Source: a virus
Lineage: Duplodnaviria > Heunggongvirae > Uroviricota > Caudoviricetes
Direction: 5' to 3' (one strand)
DNA: 31,172 bases
Virus record (IMG/VR): IMGVR_UViG_3300027365_000008
The notes beneath the pieces are model-generated. The model searched no databases and was not told the DNA's origin. It saw only the letters and a program-made list of their open reading frames with translations. The position numbers and the translations under genes were made by a program. Position 1 is the first letter of the stretch, and the number at the start of each line of letters is the position of its first letter. Shown piece by piece: positions 1,835 to 15,903 of the stretch.

Positions 1835-1849
1835 GTCATTACCCCTTTG

Positions 1850-2705
1850 AATTGCTTAGGAATGTTACGTAAAGCCGTAACGGCGAGCTAGACTTTCCAA
1901 AGAATGGAAAGCCCAGCCCGTTACCGCTTCATTTCCGTTTTGTGGCTACTGAGTCGCAAAGGGAGCGCCAATCCCACCGAATCCGTTTCAAATTCACCTA
2001 CAATCCCCGAGGGGTACCGCATTGCAGGTTACAGCGGCAGACGCAACGGCACGTCGATAATTGTCTGCCTGTAAGCGCCCATCCTTGGGCAAACTTCATC
2101 CTAATCGGGCAAAGCGTGGCCATACTTCGTGAACCGCGCCGCATTTGCCCATTATCTAATGAGTAACGCGGTTCACTGACCCGACAATTGCACCACCGGC
2201 ATACTCACTTTCTCCGAGGGAGTGAATATTATGGAAACCAATTATGGTCATGATGCAATCATCCGAGAAGGCCCATGCGTCGATCGGTTGGATGTTTTCG
2301 TTTCTGGTATAAAACATCCAAAAGTACCGGCTTGCTTATTTTAATTCGCGCCACACGAATACATAAGATAGTACTGCTACCAATCTAAGCATGTTTCTCG
2401 GGCAAACTATTCAGTACCGTGTTCGCACATAGACGAACAACTATTAGCCTGAAAATCCGGCACCCGCACGATGTTTACGTGCTGGCAGAAAGCACATTTG
2501 CCGATGCTTTCACTTGACACATTAATCCCTTGGGCGGTGGTCGCCTGCACCAAAAAGTATCAGCATACTTCGCACGGTCGCAGTAATACTGGTCATCCCG
2601 TTAAGATACACTTCCAGCGCACGCACCCTATCTGCGAGGGAGAGTGTGGCACCCGTTCTAAAGATGCGACAATCCTTTCCCGTTGGGCCTAATGCTTTGC
2701 CATCC
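1850..2705 (-). ncRNA. Candidate long structured leader or ncRNA (~850 nt)
   Basis: No minus-strand ORF of 60 aa or more. Dense hairpins at 1872-1929, 2029-2074, 2077-2090, 2129-2176, 2201-2229, 2288-2321, 2466-2482, 2489-2510 and 2555-2570. It lies directly downstream of the promoter array. Confidence 0.45.
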
Positions 2706-2709
2706 GATT

Positions 2710-2721
2710 TGTTAAAGAGCG
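2710..2721 (-). promoter_or_regulatory. boxA antitermination element (CGCTCTTTAACA)
   Basis: Differs from the rrn boxA TGCTCTTTAACA only at the first base, which is C as in lambdoid boxA. A hairpin TTGCTA-GACT-TAGCAA lies just before it. Confidence 0.75.
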
Positions 2722-2729
2722 TGTTGCTA

Positions 2730-2757
2730 AGTCTAGCAAATCAGATTGTGTTGTCAA
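2730..2757 (-). promoter_or_regulatory. sigma70 promoter, unit 1 downstream
   Basis: TTGACA-N16-TAGACT with TGc extended -10. Confidence 0.7.
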
Positions 2758-2800
2758 GCCAATCTTGCGCTTGTTTTCAAATCCGTTTTGCTTGATTCCA

Positions 2801-2828
2801 AGTCTATCAGGCTTTCGTGTTCTGTCAA
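2801..2828 (-). promoter_or_regulatory. sigma70 promoter, unit 1 upstream
   Basis: TTGACA-N16-TAGACT with TGa extended -10 and an A-rich UP-like tract CAAAATAAAAC. Confidence 0.7.
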
Positions 2829-2958
2829 GTTTTATTTTGAATCCCGTTTCATCTTTTGTTATGCAATGCGACCCGTTGGGCGATGCTTTCCAGATGAAAC
2901 CGATTCTCAACTTTCAGGCGCACTTGTCCCGTCGAATCAGAATCTTACTTAGCAGCGA

Positions 2959-2970
2959 TTTTAAAGAGCG
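2959..2970 (-). promoter_or_regulatory. boxA element (CGCTCTTTAAAA)
   Basis: 11/12 match to CGCTCTTTAACA, in register with 2710-2721. Confidence 0.65.
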
Positions 2971-2978
2971 TGTTGCCT

Positions 2979-3006
2979 AGTCTAGCAAATCAGATTGTGT
3001 TGTCAA
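2979..3006 (-). promoter_or_regulatory. sigma70 promoter, unit 2 downstream
   Basis: TTGACA-N16-TAGACT with TGc extended -10. Confidence 0.7.
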
Positions 3007-3049
3007 GCCAATCTTGCGCTTGTTTTCAAATCCGTTTTGCTTGTCCATC

Positions 3050-3077
3050 ATTCTAGCAGGCTTTCGTGTTCTGTCAA
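3050..3077 (-). promoter_or_regulatory. sigma70 promoter, unit 2 upstream
   Basis: TTGACA-N16-TAGAAT with TGc extended -10 and an UP-like A tract. Confidence 0.75.
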
Positions 3078-3206
3078 GTTTTATTTTGAATCCCGTTTCA
3101 TCTTTTGTTATGCAATGCGACCCGTTGGGCGATGCTTTCCAGATGAAACCGATTCTCAACTTTCAGGCGCACTTGTCCCGTGGTCGAGCGATGGGGCTGG
3201 CAACAA

Positions 3207-3218
3207 TTTTAAAGAGCG
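3207..3218 (-). promoter_or_regulatory. boxA element (CGCTCTTTAAAA)
   Basis: Retained even though the flanking sequence is not part of the duplication. A hairpin GCGCCA-CGGAT-TGGCGC lies just before it. Confidence 0.65.
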
Positions 3219-3285
3219 CGCGCCAATCCGTGGCGCTGGGACTTGCTTCCTGTCCCGCTTGCTTCGTCCTAAGCAAGTGATTTGA

Positions 3286-3313
3286 ATTATAGACTAGAAG
3301 CGGCAATGGTCAA
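3286..3313 (-). promoter_or_regulatory. sigma70 promoter
   Basis: TTGACC-N16-TATAAT with A/T tracts upstream. Confidence 0.7.
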
Positions 3314-3356
3314 GTATTCAAATTCAATTTTCCGAAAAAATTTTCAAAATAGACTG

Positions 3357-3369
3357 TAATGCATTGATT
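3357..3369 (-). promoter_or_regulatory. IHF consensus site
   Basis: AATCAA-TGCA-TTA matches WATCAANNNNTTR. Confidence 0.5.
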
Positions 3370-3493
3370 CTATTTTGATTTTCCGATTTCGTTAGGCTGC
3401 GAACCTAGCGCCTTCATTATATCCCATCCCGCACCCGCGAATATCATATCTGATTTGAAGAATCAAGAATTTTTCTTCAAATCCATGAAAAAC

Positions 3494-3522
3494 ATTCTAA
3501 ACGATTGATTTTAAAATGTAAA
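3494..3522 (-). promoter_or_regulatory. Possible sigma70 promoter with an IHF consensus (3498-3510) in its spacer
   Basis: TTTACA-N17-TAGAAT, and AATCAA-TCGT-TTA matches WATCAANNNNTTR. The AT-rich context raises the chance of a random match. Confidence 0.45.
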
Positions 3523-3528
3523 TAGTTT

Positions 3529-3583
3529 AAATGAAAATGATTCTCATTTGCTTAAATTATTTTTGATAATGATTCTCATTTAA
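3529..3583. promoter_or_regulatory. Two Fur-box-like sites
   Basis: GAAAATGATTCTCATTTGC (3533-3551) and GATAATGATTCTCATTTAA (3565-3583) each match GATAATGATAATCATTATC at 14/19. 3529-3549 is a near-perfect 10-1-10 palindrome. Confidence 0.55.
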
Positions 3584-3632
3584 AGGATATTTGGTTAATT
3601 TTTGATCAATTAGGATGCTAATTATTGCATTT

Positions 3633-3716
3633 GTCCGGGATTTTACCGTATATCCCGGACGTTTGACAGGACAAGATGACGGACAAGATACCGGACAAGA
3701 TGACGGACGGATGTAC
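3633..3716. repeat. 9-bp inverted repeat followed by 12-bp tandem repeats
   Basis: GTCCGGGAT...ATCCCGGAC at 3633-3660. In-register 12-mers GGACGTTTGACA, GGACAAGATGAC, GGACAAGATACC, GGACAAGATGAC and GGACGGATGTAC run from 3657. Confidence 0.8.
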
Positions 3717-3747
3717 AAACAAATCGGGCCACTTCAAGAGTGGCCCG
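3716..3747 (-). terminator. Intrinsic terminator after gp68
   Basis: CGGGCCACT-CTTGA-AGTGGCCCG followed by ATTTGTTT. Confidence 0.65.
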
Positions 3748-3755
3748 TGTTCATT

Positions 3756-4139
3756 TCAGATATGCATCGCTCTACGGCGTTTCATCGCTTTCTGTCGTTT
3801 TCGAATTGCTTTCTTCAAAGAGGCGGGATTCTTACGGCGGGTCCGTGCGGCTTTCTTTGCCCGACGCCTAAGTTCTGATTTACTCATACCCGTGGTACGG
3901 GTCGCTGACCGGGAACGCTGTTTTCTACTACGGGTCCGAGTCACTTTCCCTTTAGACGAAACATGCTTGGTCATGGCTTCATCCAAATGTTGCTTGAACT
4001 CTTCATCAGTCAAACCAAGTTCTTCTTTGAGTTCATCCAATTCGCTTTCATCACAACTAGCTAGGTAGAACTCATACAGATAGTCTTCTAGGGTTCCGAG
4101 TTCTTCCTGTTCGCTTTCAATCAGTTCATCAAATGTCAT
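3756..4139 (-). CDS. gp68: Prohead core protein, T4 gp68-like
   Basis: The C-terminal KHVSSKGKVTRT...TTGMSK...RRRAKKAART...NP...RKRQKAMKRRR aligns by eye with T4 gp68 as recalled (KHVSARGEITRT...TTGLSK...RKRKKALKRRK). A late promoter lies upstream. Confidence 0.8.
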   Translation of the reverse strand: MTFDELIESEQEELGTLEDYLYEFYLASCDESELDELKEELGLTDEEFKQHLDEAMTKHVSSKGKVTRTRSRKQRSRSATRTTGMSKSELRRRAKKAARTRRKNPASLKKAIRKRQKAMKRRRAMHI

Positions 4140-4163
4140 AACAGACTCCCGTTATCTTTGTTG

Positions 4164-4171
4164 TATTTATA
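4164..4171 (-). promoter_or_regulatory. T4-type late promoter TATAAATA
   Basis: Exact gp55 consensus 25 nt upstream of gp68. Confidence 0.75.
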
Positions 4172-4195
4172 AGAAAGCCCCACTTAGTGGGGCTT
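4171..4195 (-). terminator. Intrinsic terminator after dUTPase
   Basis: AAGCCCCAC-TAA-GTGGGGCTT followed by TCTTAT. Confidence 0.6.
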
Positions 4196-4201
4196 ATCGA
4201 G

Positions 4202-4966: not shown

Positions 4967-5030
4967 TGAATCCTCTTCTGAGTCTGGTGATTAAGTTGAA
5001 AGCCCTCCCATCGAGGGCTTTTGCAAAGAT

Positions 5031-7480: not shown

Positions 7481-9829
7481 TTAGGCTCCTACAGTAAGTT
7501 TGTTTGACGCACGGGAACAGGCAGTGTAACGGAACTTCTGTTGATCGAGGAAGAAGGATACGTCCTCATCGATAAACAACACGTCCGTGAAACTTGAACC
7601 TTGGCAATTACTATGGGGGAAGCCGTTTTGTAAGAAGTTCCCCCCATCAGGAACGGTAACGCACATGCTACTCTCCACTGATTCTTCAATACTCTCCACC
7701 CGCACATAATGCCAATTGAGCATCTCGGAGAGAGTAGAATCCCCAGTAGAACGAGCCATTTCTCTCGAAATGTATCCTTTCTTGTACATAGAAACCTTTT
7801 GGTGTTGTTGTACAAGTCCTTCATCATACAAGCCAGATGCCATCTCACGAGTAATGGGAATACGATACCTTTTTTCTGTTTCTCGGTAGTGATTCAACCG
7901 CGAGTTCTTTAATTTTGATACAAAACCAATCCTTTCCTTAAACGTTGAACATCCATTTCCGTAAATGTAAATGTTCCAAAGGGATGATGTTTCCCGTTGG
8001 ACCTTTTGGCTGATTATGCCAGCCCGAAGAAGGGAGACTTGAACGTAATCAGCAATAGATTTGTATTCAGTAGTAAACTGAATATGATCACACACACCAT
8101 CTTTAATATTCGCACATCCATCTTCAAACAAACCACGGAAGAATGACATTTGAACTGAGTATGGTGATCGCATGATGCACTCTGGAATGCCCTTTTCGTG
8201 GGGGGTCATGCCACCTACAGCAATCAGCCACGACCTAATATGCGTAGAGTTCACTTCGGATACCCAACCGTTACCGATGCTACAAACATTAGAAGGTTTA
8301 ACCTCGCAACGATAACCGAATAGGGTATATACCAATTCAGAAAATCTTTCAACAACATCTCTATGTCTCTTGAGTAAACGAAAGCCTGTTTTAAACATAC
8401 ATCCATCGGCTACCATCAACCCAAGAAATTCCGCTACAGTTTCATCACATTCTTTAGGCAAATCCCACTTCACCGCCCTAACATCAGATTCGATGTTTTC
8501 TGGTAGACATGCGTATCGATTCGGCTGTGCCGTGACACCCAATTTCATTCGCATCCATTCTCCTTCCTTTAACTCTTTCGCTTCCTTCATAATGAAAGAA
8601 CCAGAATCGTCATCATAATACTCGACCTTGTGATCATCCGTGACTGTCACTTCATACCCACCCTCACCAATAATCCGTAGTGACCGCATAGGTGGGTTGA
8701 TGATTTTGTTATGATATCCCATCACCCCGTCACGGGTAGCAATCATACCTGTATCAGTGATTTCACGGATCGGCAGTAATCCTTCATCGGTTTCAACGAT
8801 GGTGTCTGGGTGAACGCACTTGTGCGCTGTAAGTGCATATCCGAAAGTCATGATCGGTAGATCGGGTTCTTCCCAATGGGGTTTCTCGGTCTTCCAAGTC
8901 GTGTTGTGAACCCGAACCGTCACTTTCTTACCGGGGGAATCCATTGAACTCAGATTGAATTGGCATACGTCCAGCGAGTTCATGCGCCCTTCTACCTTGA
9001 AACGCTCACCATTGTAAATCTTGGTGTTGTTTACGACTGTGTTCTGAAGACACATGACAGTTTCACCCGCTTCAGGCACGATGTCATTGAACCCTTTGGC
9101 CACCCTCACGTTTTCATTGATCTTCTTACGAGTCTTGTTCATACCGCAAATGATGGCGTCATAATCATTGTCCTTGAAGTGCTTGACAGTCATGACGCTT
9201 CGTTTTGCACGCACTACCACATCATTACGTTTCCAACGAGGAATTGAATTGTTTTCACGGAGATGCTGGCACAGTTCTAGGATACCCGACCCTTCACTCT
9301 GACGACGAATCTGTTTCAGTTCGATGGATTGGCCCGGAAGATCAGTCAGGGTGCAGAACGGTGTTTCCTCACGCGGCGAAATAGACGGCAACTGGGCTTG
9401 ATCACCCGCCAGTACGATAGGGACACCGAGTTCCGCCAAGTCATTCCAGATACCACGCGGGACCATTGATGCCTCATCAATGATCAGCCCGTGGATAAGT
9501 ACAGAAGCAACGTCGTCCTTGTTTCGTTTCTCCCATCGAACCAGATTCCCATCAGCATCGAGAACAGGTTTGTAAAGAATGCTATGTAGGGTAGATGCGT
9601 TAAGACCATCCTTCGCCATCTGTGCTGCTGCACGCCCCACATAGGATGCCGCCACGGGTTGGATATTGTGTTTGGCCAGAAACGCAGTCAATGCCCTTAC
9701 GGTATAGGTCTTCCCGCAACCCGCGTGCGAGAGAAACCGAAGAGGATTGGAAATATCCTTACGATTAACAAGATAATCCGCCGTGGTAACGAATGCCCGG
9801 TACTGTTCATCTGCAAGTGTTTCAATCAT
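7481..9829 (-). CDS. dda: Dda/RecD-like SF1B helicase containing an intein (start moved to MIETL at 9829)
   Basis: AGCGKT Walker A, IIDEASM, GDQAQLPSI, LKQIRRQ, YALTAHK/CQGS and YTACSRA. The RBS AAAGGA lies upstream of 9829. Confidence 0.9.
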   Translation of the reverse strand: MIETLADEQYRAFVTTADYLVNRKDISNPLRFLSHAGCGKTYTVRALTAFLAKHNIQPVAASYVGRAAAQMAKDGLNASTLHSILYKPVLDADGNLVRWEKRNKDDVASVLIHGLIIDEASMVPRGIWNDLAELGVPIVLAGDQAQLPSISPREETPFCTLTDLPGQSIELKQIRRQSEGSGILELCQHLRENNSIPRWKRNDVVVRAKRSVMTVKHFKDNDYDAIICGMNKTRKKINENVRVAKGFNDIVPEAGETVMCLQNTVVNNTKIYNGERFKVEGRMNSLDVCQFNLSSMDSPGKKVTVRVHNTTWKTEKPHWEEPDLPIMTFGYALTAHKCVHPDTIVETDEGLLPIREITDTGMIATRDGVMGYHNKIINPPMRSLRIIGEGGYEVTVTDDHKVEYYDDDSGSFIMKEAKELKEGEWMRMKLGVTAQPNRYACLPENIESDVRAVKWDLPKECDETVAEFLGLMVADGCMFKTGFRLLKRHRDVVERFSELVYTLFGYRCEVKPSNVCSIGNGWVSEVNSTHIRSWLIAVGGMTPHEKGIPECIMRSPYSVQMSFFRGLFEDGCANIKDGVCDHIQFTTEYKSIADYVQVSLLRAGIISQKVQRETSSLWNIYIYGNGCSTFKERIGFVSKLKNSRLNHYRETEKRYRIPITREMASGLYDEGLVQQHQKVSMYKKGYISREMARSTGDSTLSEMLNWHYVRVESIEESVESSMCVTVPDGGNFLQNGFPHSNCQGSSFTDVLFIDEDVSFFLDQQKFRYTACSRASNKLTVGA
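7607..8818 (-). mobile_element. Intein with LAGLIDADG homing endonuclease (404 aa) in the helicase
   Basis: It starts CVHPDT after AHK and ends NGFPHSN before CQG. It contains FLGLMVADG and FFRGLFEDG, and its DNA looks more AT-rich than the flanks. Confidence 0.92.
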
Positions 9830-9907
9830 GTATCGTGGTCCTTTAATGAAAAACGCCACACAGATGATAACCCGTGTGGCGCTTCGCTGCAAGGAGGATT
9901 TACGAAA

Positions 9908-12003: not shown

Positions 12004-14073
12004 TCAAATGGCCATGGAGAATTTCATCAGCCCGCAATCGAAAATACGGTAGTACCCATGATCGTTCATGTTCCGAATCTCAGACTTGGCAGGATCGAAG
12101 TTCTTCAGGATCGAAGGCAACCTATTTCTACGGAACTTCTGTTTGCGTTCTCGGCGCTGTCCTACCACATATTGATAATCGGGTGCGGTATCGTACTCGT
12201 GAACGAAGCCACAATTGTGGTACACGTCGCCTACACTCCACCGCTTGTCAGCGAATGAAACGATGCGGCTGATACCTTGATCCTTCAGAACACGAATAGA
12301 ATGTTTCAGTAGCTTGCTGAATCCTCCCACTACCGACTTAGACGTTGCGTAACGAATCAATTCTACTTCACCAGCCTTACCGGTCTTACGAAAGGACATC
12401 GCGGCAACGATTGTATCATTGTGGGTCAATGTCAGTGCAGTAGAACCGGGACCATGACCCTGAATATGGTTGTTATCATAGAAATTCTTCAAATCCGAAT
12501 GTTTCACCTGTTGAACATGACACTTCCTAGCATATACTCTTTCGGTTCGAATCCCCAGCATGAACCTCAGTTTCTCTTTAACGACTTCTTTACGATCATG
12601 CCACTCGTCCTCGAAAAGCTGAATGAGACGTATCCCTTGAGAAGCCGCTGTTTTGGTTTTCTCCAAATGATACTGGGCATCACGATACAACTCACAGTGC
12701 CAGTAGACGCCGTTGTATTCTATTCCGATCTGATGGTTTGGAAGATAGATATCAATCTCTTTTCCGTCCATCCCATCCCTGTACTTGGTCACCACTTCGA
12801 TCCCAAGGGATCGTATATACTCAATCAGTTCTCGTTCCCCGAAAGAGGTTCCAACCGTTTCATCGACGGCGATGCCATGCTTTCTCATGTAGGCGTAGAA
12901 GGTTTTGTCATCCACTCCTATCATATCGGAAGCACGAAGACCCCCATACGTCGAATAGTATTCTTGCAACTTATCGGCATTGTTGAGAACATCAATTGCT
13001 TCCGGGCTAAGTGTCGATGTCATGTAATGAGGATGCCCGTAACGATCCAACGAAGTCTGGACCTTTTTCTGTTTCACCTCACCACTTTGGCTAGGATTAT
13101 CAACCCCATACCTATGCCGAAATGCTTCTTTTATCCGATACTTAACCGTCTCGGATTTGGCGGGATTGTCAACCCCATACCGTTCTGTCGATGTAATACG
13201 CCTCAGTGATACAATTTCATCGCCGCGTTCGGCAATCGTGTCCAAAATAGATTGCCTAACCCGGTCCCGAATAGGAGGACTTTTCATGGGATGATCCACC
13301 CCGTACTTCTCACGGTTTGTCAACTTCGACTTGGCCTTTACATCGGGAGAAGCCGATGGATGACCACCATACCGCTCGATATTGGTTTGTGTGGTCTTCT
13401 CTTTAACGCCCGGAATGTGGTAGGGACAATCCACGCCATACCGAGAACGCATTGTTCTCTTCGTGTTCTCTACAATCGGCTTCCTGTCCTTGCCGTATTT
13501 GGCATCCAGTGTAGCCTGTTGACGCTTTCGTATCTCATCATTCTGGGTAACGTACTCAACCCCATAGCGTTCGACATTCGTGGCTTTGATCTTGGCTTTC
13601 ACCTCTTCAGAAGCAGCAGGACTAGACCCACCATAGCGTTCGACATTGGTTCTCTTTCGCTTCTCTAAGAACGCTTCATTTCGGAGAGGGTGACCACCGT
13701 AGCGTTCGTCCCATGCCTTCCGTGTGCGTTCGACCTTCACCTGTTTAACGCATTTGCGTTCATAACATGTTTCTTCGAAGTCTAGGGTTCCACGAGCAAA
13801 CTTTGCCTTGCGCTCGCCACAAACACGACATGTCGGAAGTTGGTTAGCGTCAAGAATGCCATCCACAATCATCTTCACACGGACGGAAAACGTAATCTTG
13901 TTTTGGGGATAGTGGTCCTCAAGAAAACTCGTTTTTCTGATTATGTTCCCTTTCATGTGTTTGAAATAATTCGAGATGTACCCAACATTAGACACCCCTT
14001 TAAGGAACTCCCTAAGCTGTTCGGTTGACCAGTTAGCATGTTCCTCGCTATCACTCATCTTTCTTTTGCTCAT
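12004..14073 (-). CDS. hef: Hef-like homing endonuclease: Zn finger, ~10 [RK]YG repeats, nuclease domain and GNAT/Mom-like C-terminus
   Basis: CRVCG...CYERKC, TNVERYG-type repeats, EIDIYLP-IGIEYNGVYWH, then ELIRY and SFADKRWS-GDVY. Confidence 0.75.
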   Translation of the reverse strand: MSKRKMSDSEEHANWSTEQLREFLKGVSNVGYISNYFKHMKGNIIRKTSFLEDHYPQNKITFSVRVKMIVDGILDANQLPTCRVCGERKAKFARGTLDFEETCYERKCVKQVKVERTRKAWDERYGGHPLRNEAFLEKRKRTNVERYGGSSPAASEEVKAKIKATNVERYGVEYVTQNDEIRKRQQATLDAKYGKDRKPIVENTKRTMRSRYGVDCPYHIPGVKEKTTQTNIERYGGHPSASPDVKAKSKLTNREKYGVDHPMKSPPIRDRVRQSILDTIAERGDEIVSLRRITSTERYGVDNPAKSETVKYRIKEAFRHRYGVDNPSQSGEVKQKKVQTSLDRYGHPHYMTSTLSPEAIDVLNNADKLQEYYSTYGGLRASDMIGVDDKTFYAYMRKHGIAVDETVGTSFGERELIEYIRSLGIEVVTKYRDGMDGKEIDIYLPNHQIGIEYNGVYWHCELYRDAQYHLEKTKTAASQGIRLIQLFEDEWHDRKEVVKEKLRFMLGIRTERVYARKCHVQQVKHSDLKNFYDNNHIQGHGPGSTALTLTHNDTIVAAMSFRKTGKAGEVELIRYATSKSVVGGFSKLLKHSIRVLKDQGISRIVSFADKRWSVGDVYHNCGFVHEYDTAPDYQYVVGQRRERKQKFRRNRLPSILKNFDPAKSEIRNMNDHGYYRIFDCGLMKFSMAI

Positions 14074-14097
14074 ACCTTACTCCTAGACAATGTTAAG

Positions 14098-14126
14098 ACG
14101 GTACCTTCCCTTTCTACGCATGTCAA
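14098..14126 (-). promoter_or_regulatory. Possible sigma70 promoter for the 689-aa Hef gene
   Basis: TTGACA-N17-TACCGT in the gap between the two paralogs. Confidence 0.5.
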
Positions 14127-14130
14127 ATAT

Positions 14131-15903
14131 TTACGGAGTCATCTCGTACCGAATAGAACCTGCATCATATAGTTTGTAGAAGCCATGGTTGAGCATGTTG
14201 GCATGTTCGGATATATCAGGATCGAAATTCTCCAACACCTCTTTCAGTTTGCTTTTCATGAACCGTTGACGTTGGAGACGTACACTTCCCTTGGTATACC
14301 ACATTCCCGGTTCAGTGATCTTGATCTTCTCAAATCCTGTCTTCTCGTACACCCCACCGTGTGAGTAATCGAGGTGGGCGAACGTCACGATCTTGTTCCA
14401 CTCTGTAGTTTTCTTGAAGTGTGACAATAGCTTACTGAATCCTCCCACCACCGTCATTGAAGTCGCAAAGCGGTTCAAATCCCAAACACCTTCTTCACGC
14501 ATGGGATGGAATGAAGCACAGGCAACCAGTTCACCTTCATATTCGAGTCCGATATGTTTAGATGCACGAACGAACCCCTGAAGGTGATTTGAATTGTAAA
14601 ATGATCTCACCTGAGAGGCAGACGGGATCACGATGGATGTCTTGCGGGCATACACCTTCTGACTGACAGGGAACCCCAGCTTACTGCGCAGCTTATTTTT
14701 CACTATCTCACGTTTCACGGGATTCGTCCAATCGTCTTCCCATACGTGAACCAATTGGATTCCGTGACCCATACAAGAAAGTGACTTCTCTTGGTGATAC
14801 TTACGGTCCCGGTACTTCTCACAATGCCAATAGATGCCATTGTATTCGATAGCCACATTGCGTTCTGGGATATAGATATCCAGTTCCATACCACTCAACA
14901 CAGTTCGATTAGATGATTCAAACTCAACACCTAACTCATCGGTGAGGAATGCATGTAGGTCACGCTCCCCTTGAGACACCTTAGATGCACCATGAATCGT
15001 TTCCTCTACCCCCAGAGCAACCAGTTTGTTCCACACAGTAGACGGATAAACACCTACCTCTTCAGCAATAGAAACGATGGTGCGTGTTTGGTACTGCTCC
15101 ATCAGCCAATCATGATCATCGAGATATTTCATCGAGGTTGGGTTCTGAAAGTGATGCTCAACCCCATACCGCTCCATGTTGTTGGCCTTCACACGCTCCT
15201 TAAACTCATCCGTGCTGAAGTAGTTGGCGGCACCGAACGCGGCCACGCGGGCTTCTTTCGCAGCAGATGACGATAGAAAATGTCCTCCAAAGTGCTTCTT
15301 GTGGCTTTCGGAGATACGTTGCTTAATCGTGTCCACCTGACCTACGTTCTCGACCCCATAACGCTCCTTGACCGTGTTTAGGCGCTTCTCGACTATCTCT
15401 TCCCCTCGCTCGGCAATGGCTACCTGCCACGACTCTCGCATCTTTTGTTTTGTGTTTTCGGTGTGTTTTCTTCCTTTCGTTTTCTGTTTGTATTCTTCAG
15501 TCTGTGCATAGTTACCTGACCCATAGCGTTCGAGATTCGTTTGTTTGCGCTTGTCCTTGACACGCTGAGAATGGGCAGGATTCTCAACACCGTAGCGTTC
15601 CATAGAGGTCTTGCGTAGGGCGTTCTTCCTACTGGCTTTATCACACGATGCATCGCCGCATGTCTTGCGCCAGCGATTGCCTTCCTTTTCCACGTCACAC
15701 ACGGTCCCGCAGACCGGGCAGTATTGGGTATCCATCTGACCCAAAATGATCTTGACTCGCATCCCAACCTTCGTATGGGAAGGAAGCATAGAAGTCATTT
15801 CGATGATGAGATCATAGATAGGTTTGTATTTCTCGTTTCTGGATAGGTGGGTGTAACCTTTGAGTTCTTTCAAATACGCTTTCAATTCTGTTTCTGTCAT
15901 CAT
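14131..15903 (-). CDS. hef: Second Hef-like homing endonuclease paralog
   Basis: CPVCG...CGDASC, ERYG repeats, NUMOD3-like KGRKHTENTKQKMRES, ELDIYIP-VAIEYNGIYWH, and the same C-terminal domain. Confidence 0.75.
   Translation of the reverse strand: MMTETELKAYLKELKGYTHLSRNEKYKPIYDLIIEMTSMLPSHTKVGMRVKIILGQMDTQYCPVCGTVCDVEKEGNRWRKTCGDASCDKASRKNALRKTSMERYGVENPAHSQRVKDKRKQTNLERYGSGNYAQTEEYKQKTKGRKHTENTKQKMRESWQVAIAERGEEIVEKRLNTVKERYGVENVGQVDTIKQRISESHKKHFGGHFLSSSAAKEARVAAFGAANYFSTDEFKERVKANNMERYGVEHHFQNPTSMKYLDDHDWLMEQYQTRTIVSIAEEVGVYPSTVWNKLVALGVEETIHGASKVSQGERDLHAFLTDELGVEFESSNRTVLSGMELDIYIPERNVAIEYNGIYWHCEKYRDRKYHQEKSLSCMGHGIQLVHVWEDDWTNPVKREIVKNKLRSKLGFPVSQKVYARKTSIVIPSASQVRSFYNSNHLQGFVRASKHIGLEYEGELVACASFHPMREEGVWDLNRFATSMTVVGGFSKLLSHFKKTTEWNKIVTFAHLDYSHGGVYEKTGFEKIKITEPGMWYTKGSVRLQRQRFMKSKLKEVLENFDPDISEHANMLNHGFYKLYDAGSIRYEMTP

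Follow-up and report, generated by a model that had tools for sequence, protein, structure and literature searches.

Transcription of the ribosomal RNA (rrn) operons of Escherichia coli is protected from termination by a leader of the order boxB-boxA-boxC together with NusA, NusB, NusE, NusG, SuhB and S4, and lambdoid phages use a nut site of the order boxA-boxB, which acts with the phage protein N. In E. coli rrnB, the P1 promoter has a 16-bp spacer, and P2 is followed by 37 nt that include a hairpin and then by the boxA sequence TGCTCTTTAACAA. The virulent phage T7 carries a boxA anti-termination element downstream of its early promoters, and boxA mutations make Gp2 dispensable (PMC3709561); the genetic evidence for boxA-dependent antitermination by the host polymerase in T7 is credited there to Savalia 2010. 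The T4-type phages RB49 and phi1 carry PeSL cassettes, which consist of a strong sigma-70-like early promoter and a stem-loop and are prone to recombination and duplication (PMC2839356). Here we describe an early leader in which predicted host-type promoters are interleaved with three rrn-type boxA elements. It lies on the minus strand of a 31,172-bp stretch of DNA (the window, to which positions refer unless another sequence is named) from the IMG/VR record IMGVR_UViG_3300027365_000008, a phage of the class Caudoviricetes. The boxA element of this leader is real and conserved and, as judged by the comparisons given below, probably functional.

The 9-mer GCTCTTTAA occurs three times in the window (3217-3209, 2969-2961 and 2720-2712), always on the minus strand, against an expectation of 0.18, and three copies were reached in none of 100 shuffled sequences. 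All three elements match the published gammaproteobacterial boxA consensus GYTCTTTAANA (PMC5725501) exactly, and no further exact match is present on either strand of the 31 kb. The first-pass annotation of this stretch, made from the letters alone, had listed three boxA elements here, and these prove to be the only GCTCTTTAA sites of the window. They lie on the transcribed strand, downstream of predicted consensus promoters and in the same orientation; all genes, promoters and boxAs in the window are co-oriented. In the predicted RNA folds, boxA is unpaired.

The promoters are equally rare. The pattern TTGAC-N15-17-TANANT is found exactly five times in the 31,172 bp, all on the minus strand and all with a 16-bp spacer, whereas shuffled sequences contain 0.87 on average and reached five in 0 of 100 cases. 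A TGn precedes the -10 element in four of the five, as had been proposed for five leftward promoters at this place. A sixth promoter (P0), with an N17 spacer, is located upstream of the five and is also kept in the closest relative (contig L007), in which the P0 region is 71% conserved over 131 nt. AT-rich or A-rich tracts lie upstream of the window promoters, and the exact promoter 28-mer has no match in IMG/VR. The 249-bp duplication that was thought to have built the array is borne out by two direct repeats of 221 nt with 95% identity and a spacing of 249 bp (2712-2932 and 2961-3181). This duplication generated two of the three boxAs and four of the five N16 promoters, so that the independent elements are three promoters and two boxAs. 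L246, another assembly of this phage, has an identical sequence and is therefore uninformative on copy-number variation.

Read along the minus strand, the order is gp68-like gene, terminator, GTCC-type repeats, two operator-like sites, P0, P1, hairpins, boxA-3, P2 and P3, boxA-2, P4 and P5, and boxA-1. The features are as follows.

3725-3747, minus strand: terminator-like hairpin with a T-run, just past the T4 gp68-like gene (4139-3756); it ends the upstream operon ahead of the early leader.
3494-3522, minus strand: promoter P0, TTTACA-N17-TAGAAT, with palindromic operator-like sites on its upstream side.
3286-3313, minus strand: promoter P1, TTGACC-N16-TATAAT, with AT-rich DNA upstream and a predicted start at ~3279.
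3220-3277, minus strand: three successive predicted RNA hairpins of the P1 transcript, the last at 3236-3220.
3206-3218, minus strand: boxA-3, CGCTCTTTAAAAT, kept outside the 221-nt repeat as the first-pass annotation had noticed; merely 19 nt resemble the boxA-2 region.
2961-3181, minus strand: repeat copy 2, with P2, P3, the boxA-2 core (2969-2961), a degenerate operator-like site (3161-3144) and an A-rich upstream stretch.
3077-3050, minus strand: promoter P2, with TGn, inside repeat copy 2.
3006-2979, minus strand: promoter P3, with TGn, inside repeat copy 2.
2958-2970, minus strand: boxA-2, CGCTCTTTAAAAT, at ~+2 from P3 and ~+74 from P2.
2712-2932, minus strand: repeat copy 1, with P4, P5 and the boxA-1 core (2720-2712).
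2828-2801, minus strand: promoter P4, with TGn, inside repeat copy 1.
2757-2730, minus strand: promoter P5, with TGn, inside repeat copy 1.
2709-2721, minus strand: boxA-1, CGCTCTTTAACAA, which shares 12 of its 13 positions with the boxA of the E. coli rrnB leader.
1835-2708, minus strand: 874 nt of untranslated RNA, predicted to fold strongly and devoid of convincing open reading frames (ORFs), from the last boxA to the first gene with the usual ribosome-binding context of the phage (ATG at 1834).

Whether the 9-mer is an RNA signal at all can be judged in part from this layout. It might belong to the promoter or operator DNA, or have arisen by chance and been carried along by the duplication, and it is true that two of the three copies come from one duplication event and that the motif abuts the -10 region in two units. 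However, the distance between -10 and boxA varies (8-67 nt in the window and 3-30 nt elsewhere), the motif is always on the transcribed strand, three copies never arise in shuffled sequences, and the motif is kept across leaders that share almost nothing else. We therefore find a DNA-level element or a chance occurrence scarcely credible.

Comparison with related phages gives the strongest indication that boxA is functional and not a mere resemblance. The nearest cultured relatives are the Alishewanella phages vB_AspM_Slicko01 and Slickus01 (141 kb), and a search based on the major capsid protein (MCP) identified two more genomes, G001 and G002, both of which are complete IMG/VR genomes with terminal repeats. 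All four carry a syntenic leader in which tandem TTGACA promoters are followed by one to three boxAs. The Slickus01 leader, which is located after the ligase and two small genes, gave no match to the window when a database was searched for DNA similarity. It nevertheless has three TTGACA promoters with a boxA behind each, either CGCTCTTTAACAATCTGG or a sequence one base different from it, and these three boxAs are the sole matches in 141.6 kb. When the window leader was compared with the Slickus01 leader in a sensitive pairwise search, the boxAs were the top matches. At the syntenic site, five TTGACA promoters in tandem and a single boxA are present in G001 (MCP 73% identical), and G002 (MCP 62% identical) carries at least six promoters together with three elements of the boxA type, of which two read GCTCCTTAACAATTTGG. 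What the leaders have in common is boxA and one palindrome (AATGAGAATCATTYTCATT), to which the P0 region is added between the window and L007 only. Conservation of boxA in related phages, on which the earlier proposal had been staked, is thus found in Slickus01, Slicko01, G001 and G002, and the proposal is not refuted; the variation in copy number that it had suggested looking for is also seen, as the phages differ in their numbers of promoters and boxAs.

The 16-bp spacer is not a feature of the lineage, because the spacers of the relatives are mostly N17; L007 has one N16 promoter (TTGACG-N16-TATAGT). The two contigs of the closest relative, L007 and L008, end within the promoter array, where the assembly was probably broken at the repeats, so that the boxAs of this relative are out of view. 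A DNA similarity search with window positions 2000-4200 against 50,697 phage records gave no match, and searches for relatives through the gp68-like protein, an exonuclease subunit and the ligase yielded either nothing or distant loci without the leader, which is also absent from the P0003 and P0007 contexts. The classical T4-type phages T4, KVP40, Aeh1 and RB49 contain no such promoter-boxA cluster. The statement that no stacked cassette of this kind is known in T4-like phages consequently stands for the classical T4-type phages and fails for virulent phages at large, as T7 and T5-like phages show.

Two further sequences recur in these leaders. Besides boxA, the main sequence common to the early leaders of three lineages is a palindromic operator-like motif, AATGAGAATCATT(C/T)TCATT, which is located at 3532-3549 and 3564-3581 in the window, with degenerate copies at 2895-2912 and 3144-3161, and at 11350-11440 of L007 and ~1908-1889 on the minus strand of L343 (G002). 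The motif resembles a Fur box but carries symmetric G/C changes in both half-sites, and it may be bound by a regulator of early transcription from either the host or the phage. Short repeats of the GTCC/TTGTCC type with a 12-nt period occupy 3666-3708, between the last upstream gene and the promoter array. They are found at the equivalent place in every relative (L007 11250-11300, L001 7815-7860 and L344 minus strand 2150-2070) and could represent an origin, a packaging site or a protein-binding array.

In the window, a short hairpin had been placed directly before each boxA. This is accurate for boxA-3, where hairpin 3236-3220 ends 2 nt ahead of the element in the predicted fold. For boxA-1 and boxA-2, a long irregular hairpin stops 14 nt upstream and is present only in RNAs from the distal promoter of the pair, since RNA from the proximal promoter has boxA at ~+2. 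The succession of hairpin and then boxA is the order of rrn and not that of lambda, because rrnB also shows the hairpin before boxA. Downstream of each window boxA, the RNA folds no better than shuffled sequences and forms no convincing boxB-like hairpin. These observations bear on whether the array works as a nut-like site, at which boxA and a neighbouring hairpin would act with an N-like phage protein. As at the lambdoid nut site, a boxA of the CGCTCTT(T)A type lies near the early promoters of the window and is predicted to engage Nus factors of the host; boxA-3 and many phage boxAs have a hairpin next to them, often with a loop of the GNRA type. In contrast to the nut site, the hairpin precedes boxA and no boxB follows it. 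In addition, the boxAs precede all early genes, so that no phage protein would be available at first transcription, and no N-like protein was identified in the window, although no systematic or exhaustive search for one was made. A nut-like mode of action is thus very unlikely.

Compared with the E. coli rrn leader, the window shares the boxA core (TGCTCTTTAACAA in rrnB and CGCTCTTTAACAA in boxA-1), tandem promoters, the 16-bp spacer of rrnB P1, a hairpin ahead of boxA, and a downstream RNA that is untranslated and structured. The extended boxA of the relatives is the boxA of the 16S-23S spacer in many Gammaproteobacteria (88 of 121 genomic matches lie in the spacer). Unlike the rrn operons, the array is phage-borne; the discriminators of the window promoters are AT-rich or mixed and none is GC-rich, no GT-rich boxC is evident after the window boxAs, and Rfam and tRNA searches detect no rRNA or tRNA in the window. 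Mimicry of the rrn leader, as the first-pass annotation had it, is thereby confined to boxA and the antitermination step and does not extend to the promoters, since the GC-rich discriminator, boxC and rRNA are missing and the N16 spacer is unconserved. Within these limits, the comparisons support rrn-type boxA elements behind what appear to be strong, host-type early promoters. A gammaproteobacterial host is plausible from the fit to the boxA consensus and from the relative that infects Alishewanella; a host search with boxA-1 and its flank (17-mer) was uninformative, with 64 matches over many phyla compared with ~70 estimated by chance.

In design, the array resembles the early region of T7, where the promoters A1, A2 and A3 are followed by CGCTCTTTAACAATCTGG, which is identical to the Slickus01 boxA and shares the 13-nt core of window boxA-1. 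T7 is virulent and the window phage is of the virulent type, and in both the early region is headed by tandem sigma-70 promoters, predicted to be strong in the window, with an rrn-type boxA further along the same transcript. T7 has a single boxA after all three promoters, with gene 0.3 directly next, whereas the window has three boxAs interleaved with promoters. Two of these boxAs were made by a recent duplication, and the array is followed by 0.88 kb of RNA free of ORFs. The two phages belong to unrelated lineages and resemble each other in design only, with no sequence homology outside boxA. The PeSL cassettes likewise are repeated small units of promoter and stem-loop that are prone to duplication, but their stem-loops are terminators, while the window array has no T-run terminator and its RNA signal is of the anti-terminator type.

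Stacked promoter-boxA units before the first-expressed genes are also found in T5-like phages. In Proteus phage PM135, four units in tandem and a fifth, divergent one precede the pre-early A2-A1 operon, and each terminal repeat of Providencia phage PR1 contains three units. The first-step-transfer DNA of T5 contains a hairpin and CGCTCTTTAAAAAT (4978-4988; L251 4978-5022, minus strand) inside the annotated 35-codon ORF T5.009, which may be an untranslated boxA leader instead of an ORF. Unlike the window array, the T5-like units lie inside terminal repeats, in a different phage family; a literature search on these pre-early elements yielded no paper that names them boxA. A layout like that of the window is seen in phiEco32 (Kuravirus), which has a cluster of four boxAs downstream of its early promoters and then ~820 nt in which no gene is annotated, although phiEco32 is of a podovirus lineage and the two ORF-free RNAs have no sequence similarity. 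The design is therefore known in principle, because T7 and phiEco32 show a promoter cluster with boxA. The window array is not a new system but a further example of a kind whose prototype is T7, in which the early promoter cluster of a virulent phage carries an rrn-type boxA; its local twist is the recent duplication that interleaves boxAs with promoters.

To assess the breadth of this arrangement, IMG/VR was scanned with the pattern TTGACA-N15-18-TANNNT-N1-30-CGCTCTTTAA, which gave 123 hits at no fewer than 115 loci (at least 115). The following counts hold among the matches listed. The three pattern-free bases after CGCTCTTTAA read CAA in 73 of 123 and AAA in 21 of 123, compared with a chance of 1/64 each, and the free positions of 108 distinct units rebuild CAAT(C/T)TGG. 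A hairpin ends within 4 nt before boxA in 53 of 95 units (25 ± 4 in shuffled sequences), often with a GNRA loop. In ~10 units a tRNA gene starts 26-39 nt past boxA; loci with promoter, hairpin and boxA and then a tRNA include L142, L144, L154, L185, L192, L205, L223, L227 and L234. At these loci, antitermination leaders in the style of rrn thus appear to stand before phage tRNA operons. The enrichment of tRNA genes within 1.5 kb is not above a loose upper bound, and the spacing of 26-39 nt is the only feature that is clearly non-random. Literature searches on boxA in virulent phages returned nothing apart from T7, and nothing that describes this generality.

The array is followed by RNA that is not translated. 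Between 3755 and 1835 (~1.9 kb) there is no convincing gene, and an independent gene caller also calls none; no intrinsic terminator-like site is present on the minus strand between 3313 and 1835. The 878 nt at 1835-2712 fold with a z-score of -11.3 in the sense orientation and -3.7 in the antisense (20 shuffles), and the motif AACGG is found 6.8 times per kb in this stretch, compared with 1.4 times per kb over the window as a whole. A role of the leader RNA as a CsrA sponge was considered and rejected, as GGA motifs are unenriched (19.4 vs 17.7 per kb). No RNA dataset is listed with this stretch, and the sole dataset is a DNA run of a subsurface metagenome. A fold of this strength raises the question of whether the region is a mini-rrn operon, in which the boxA/Nus complex would serve mainly as chaperone and antiterminator in making a stable, functional non-coding RNA from 2708-1835. 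The better fold of the sense strand, the analogous layout of phiEco32 and the tRNA genes that often lie directly behind boxA in phages would agree with such a role. On the other side, the z-score comes from only 20 shuffles, the RNA has no homology to the phiEco32 region or to Slickus01, and Rfam gives no family at gathering thresholds and noise only at E<=10. We consider this reading unlikely because the stretch is unconserved in sequence in any relative and varies in length from ~280 to 880 nt, and it is likewise unlikely that the array and its 0.88-kb RNA form a "mini-rRNA operon" for a new class of viral RNA, to which phiEco32 would be analogous and not homologous.

The probable explanation is that NusB/NusE are loaded onto the host polymerase at boxA, which would then resist termination while it transcribes the untranslated early RNA. 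Host sigma-70 RNA polymerase would start at the six tandem promoters of the main early cluster, and each transcript would gain an rrn-type boxA in its first 2-75 nt (~290 nt for P0). The boxA RNA would recruit host NusB-NusE(S10), by analogy with the rrn operons and T7, and NusA, NusG and SuhB would join to make the polymerase processive and resistant to termination by Rho. Such a polymerase could cross ~0.9-1.7 kb of untranslated structured RNA, on which no ribosomes would shield it from Rho, and continue into a block of small early genes. The 249-bp duplication would have doubled one unit of promoter pair and boxA and therefore raised the promoter dosage. From the elements, their orientation, rarity and conservation in relatives, and the ORF-free structured leader, we infer promoter activity, Nus binding and antitermination. 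We favour this explanation because the sole five promoters and three boxAs in 31 kb cluster and are co-oriented with the genes, because boxA fits the consensus (PMC5725501), is unpaired and is conserved without flank similarity, because T7 provides a genetic precedent (PMC3709561) and IMG/VR shows its generality, and because the untranslated leader contains no gene, folds with a z-score of -11 and has no intrinsic terminator inside.

Several points weigh against antitermination at boxA. Between Slicko01 and Slickus01, boxA shows 0 changes compared with ~1.7 expected, which is not significant alone. In place of the AACAA of the rrnB leader boxA, both boxA-2 and boxA-3 have AAAAT, and they carry T at a position where 88% of the phage boxAs listed from the scan have A. 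The +2 position is unusual for boxA and may permit only poor function, and boxA can also repress translation or promote termination, as in suhB and hisG (PMC12360218). A Rho-loading signature (C-rich and G-poor) is not seen in the leader, where C/G is 0.6-1.3 per 100 nt, so that a need for Rho protection is not evident from composition. The position at +2 would suit another role, in which early boxA RNAs act as a sink that titrates NusB/NusE and depresses host rRNA synthesis, with phage antitermination being secondary: the very short 5' ends would be decoy-like, and three boxAs stand behind six promoters that are predicted to be strong. However, a single boxA suffices in G001, and T7 genetics indicate antitermination of phage transcription itself, which makes a Nus-factor sink quite improbable. 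Nus titration, an N-like partner and a DNA-level role all appear less likely than antitermination, and this explanation is easily testable because the Alishewanella phages are cultured.

The setting of the leader is that of a lytic-type phage. The minus strand carries all long ORFs of the window. Among the genes are T4-like head genes and a replication set of the lytic type; their products include a major head protein of the gp23 type, a prohead protease, a core protein resembling gp68, a ligase, a helicase and an exonuclease. The MCP is 70% identical to those of Slicko01 and Slickus01 and ~36% identical to those of all other phages, so that the term "T4-like" used in the first-pass annotation is right for the head module and does not describe the rest. 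Judged by these genes, this is a large, virulent-type phage with a T4-like head module whose closest kin are Slicko01 and Slickus01. Between the early genes, a ~36-nt repeat with a terminator-like hairpin (ATGCCCATTCTAATGAGTGGGCAT) is found at ~1297-1262 and 512-476 (minus strand), and each copy is followed by the conserved ribosome-binding context CAATTCAAAGGGGTAAC. An intein that bears a LAGLIDADG domain is inserted in the Dda/PIF1-type helicase gene (7481-9892, minus strand). Between the head gene and the replication genes lie two large paralogs in tandem, of 590 and 689 aa (12004-15903, minus strand), which match homing/HNH endonuclease families of PHROG.

The array adds a lineage with T4-like heads, consisting of the window phage, the Alishewanella phages and two complete metagenomic genomes, to the phages that apparently borrow the host rRNA anti-termination signal for their first transcripts. 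For annotation, boxA provides a cheap marker of early transcription units served by the host polymerase and a hint of the host phylum. The generality of the design is of more value than the single array. Taken with T7, the T5-like phages, the phiEco32-like phages and over 100 contigs of IMG/VR, the array suggests that an rrn-type boxA close to the promoter is a common solution among phages of Proteobacteria, which would let the host polymerase cross untranslated RNA. Such a boxA often follows a hairpin and in some cases stands directly before tRNA genes.

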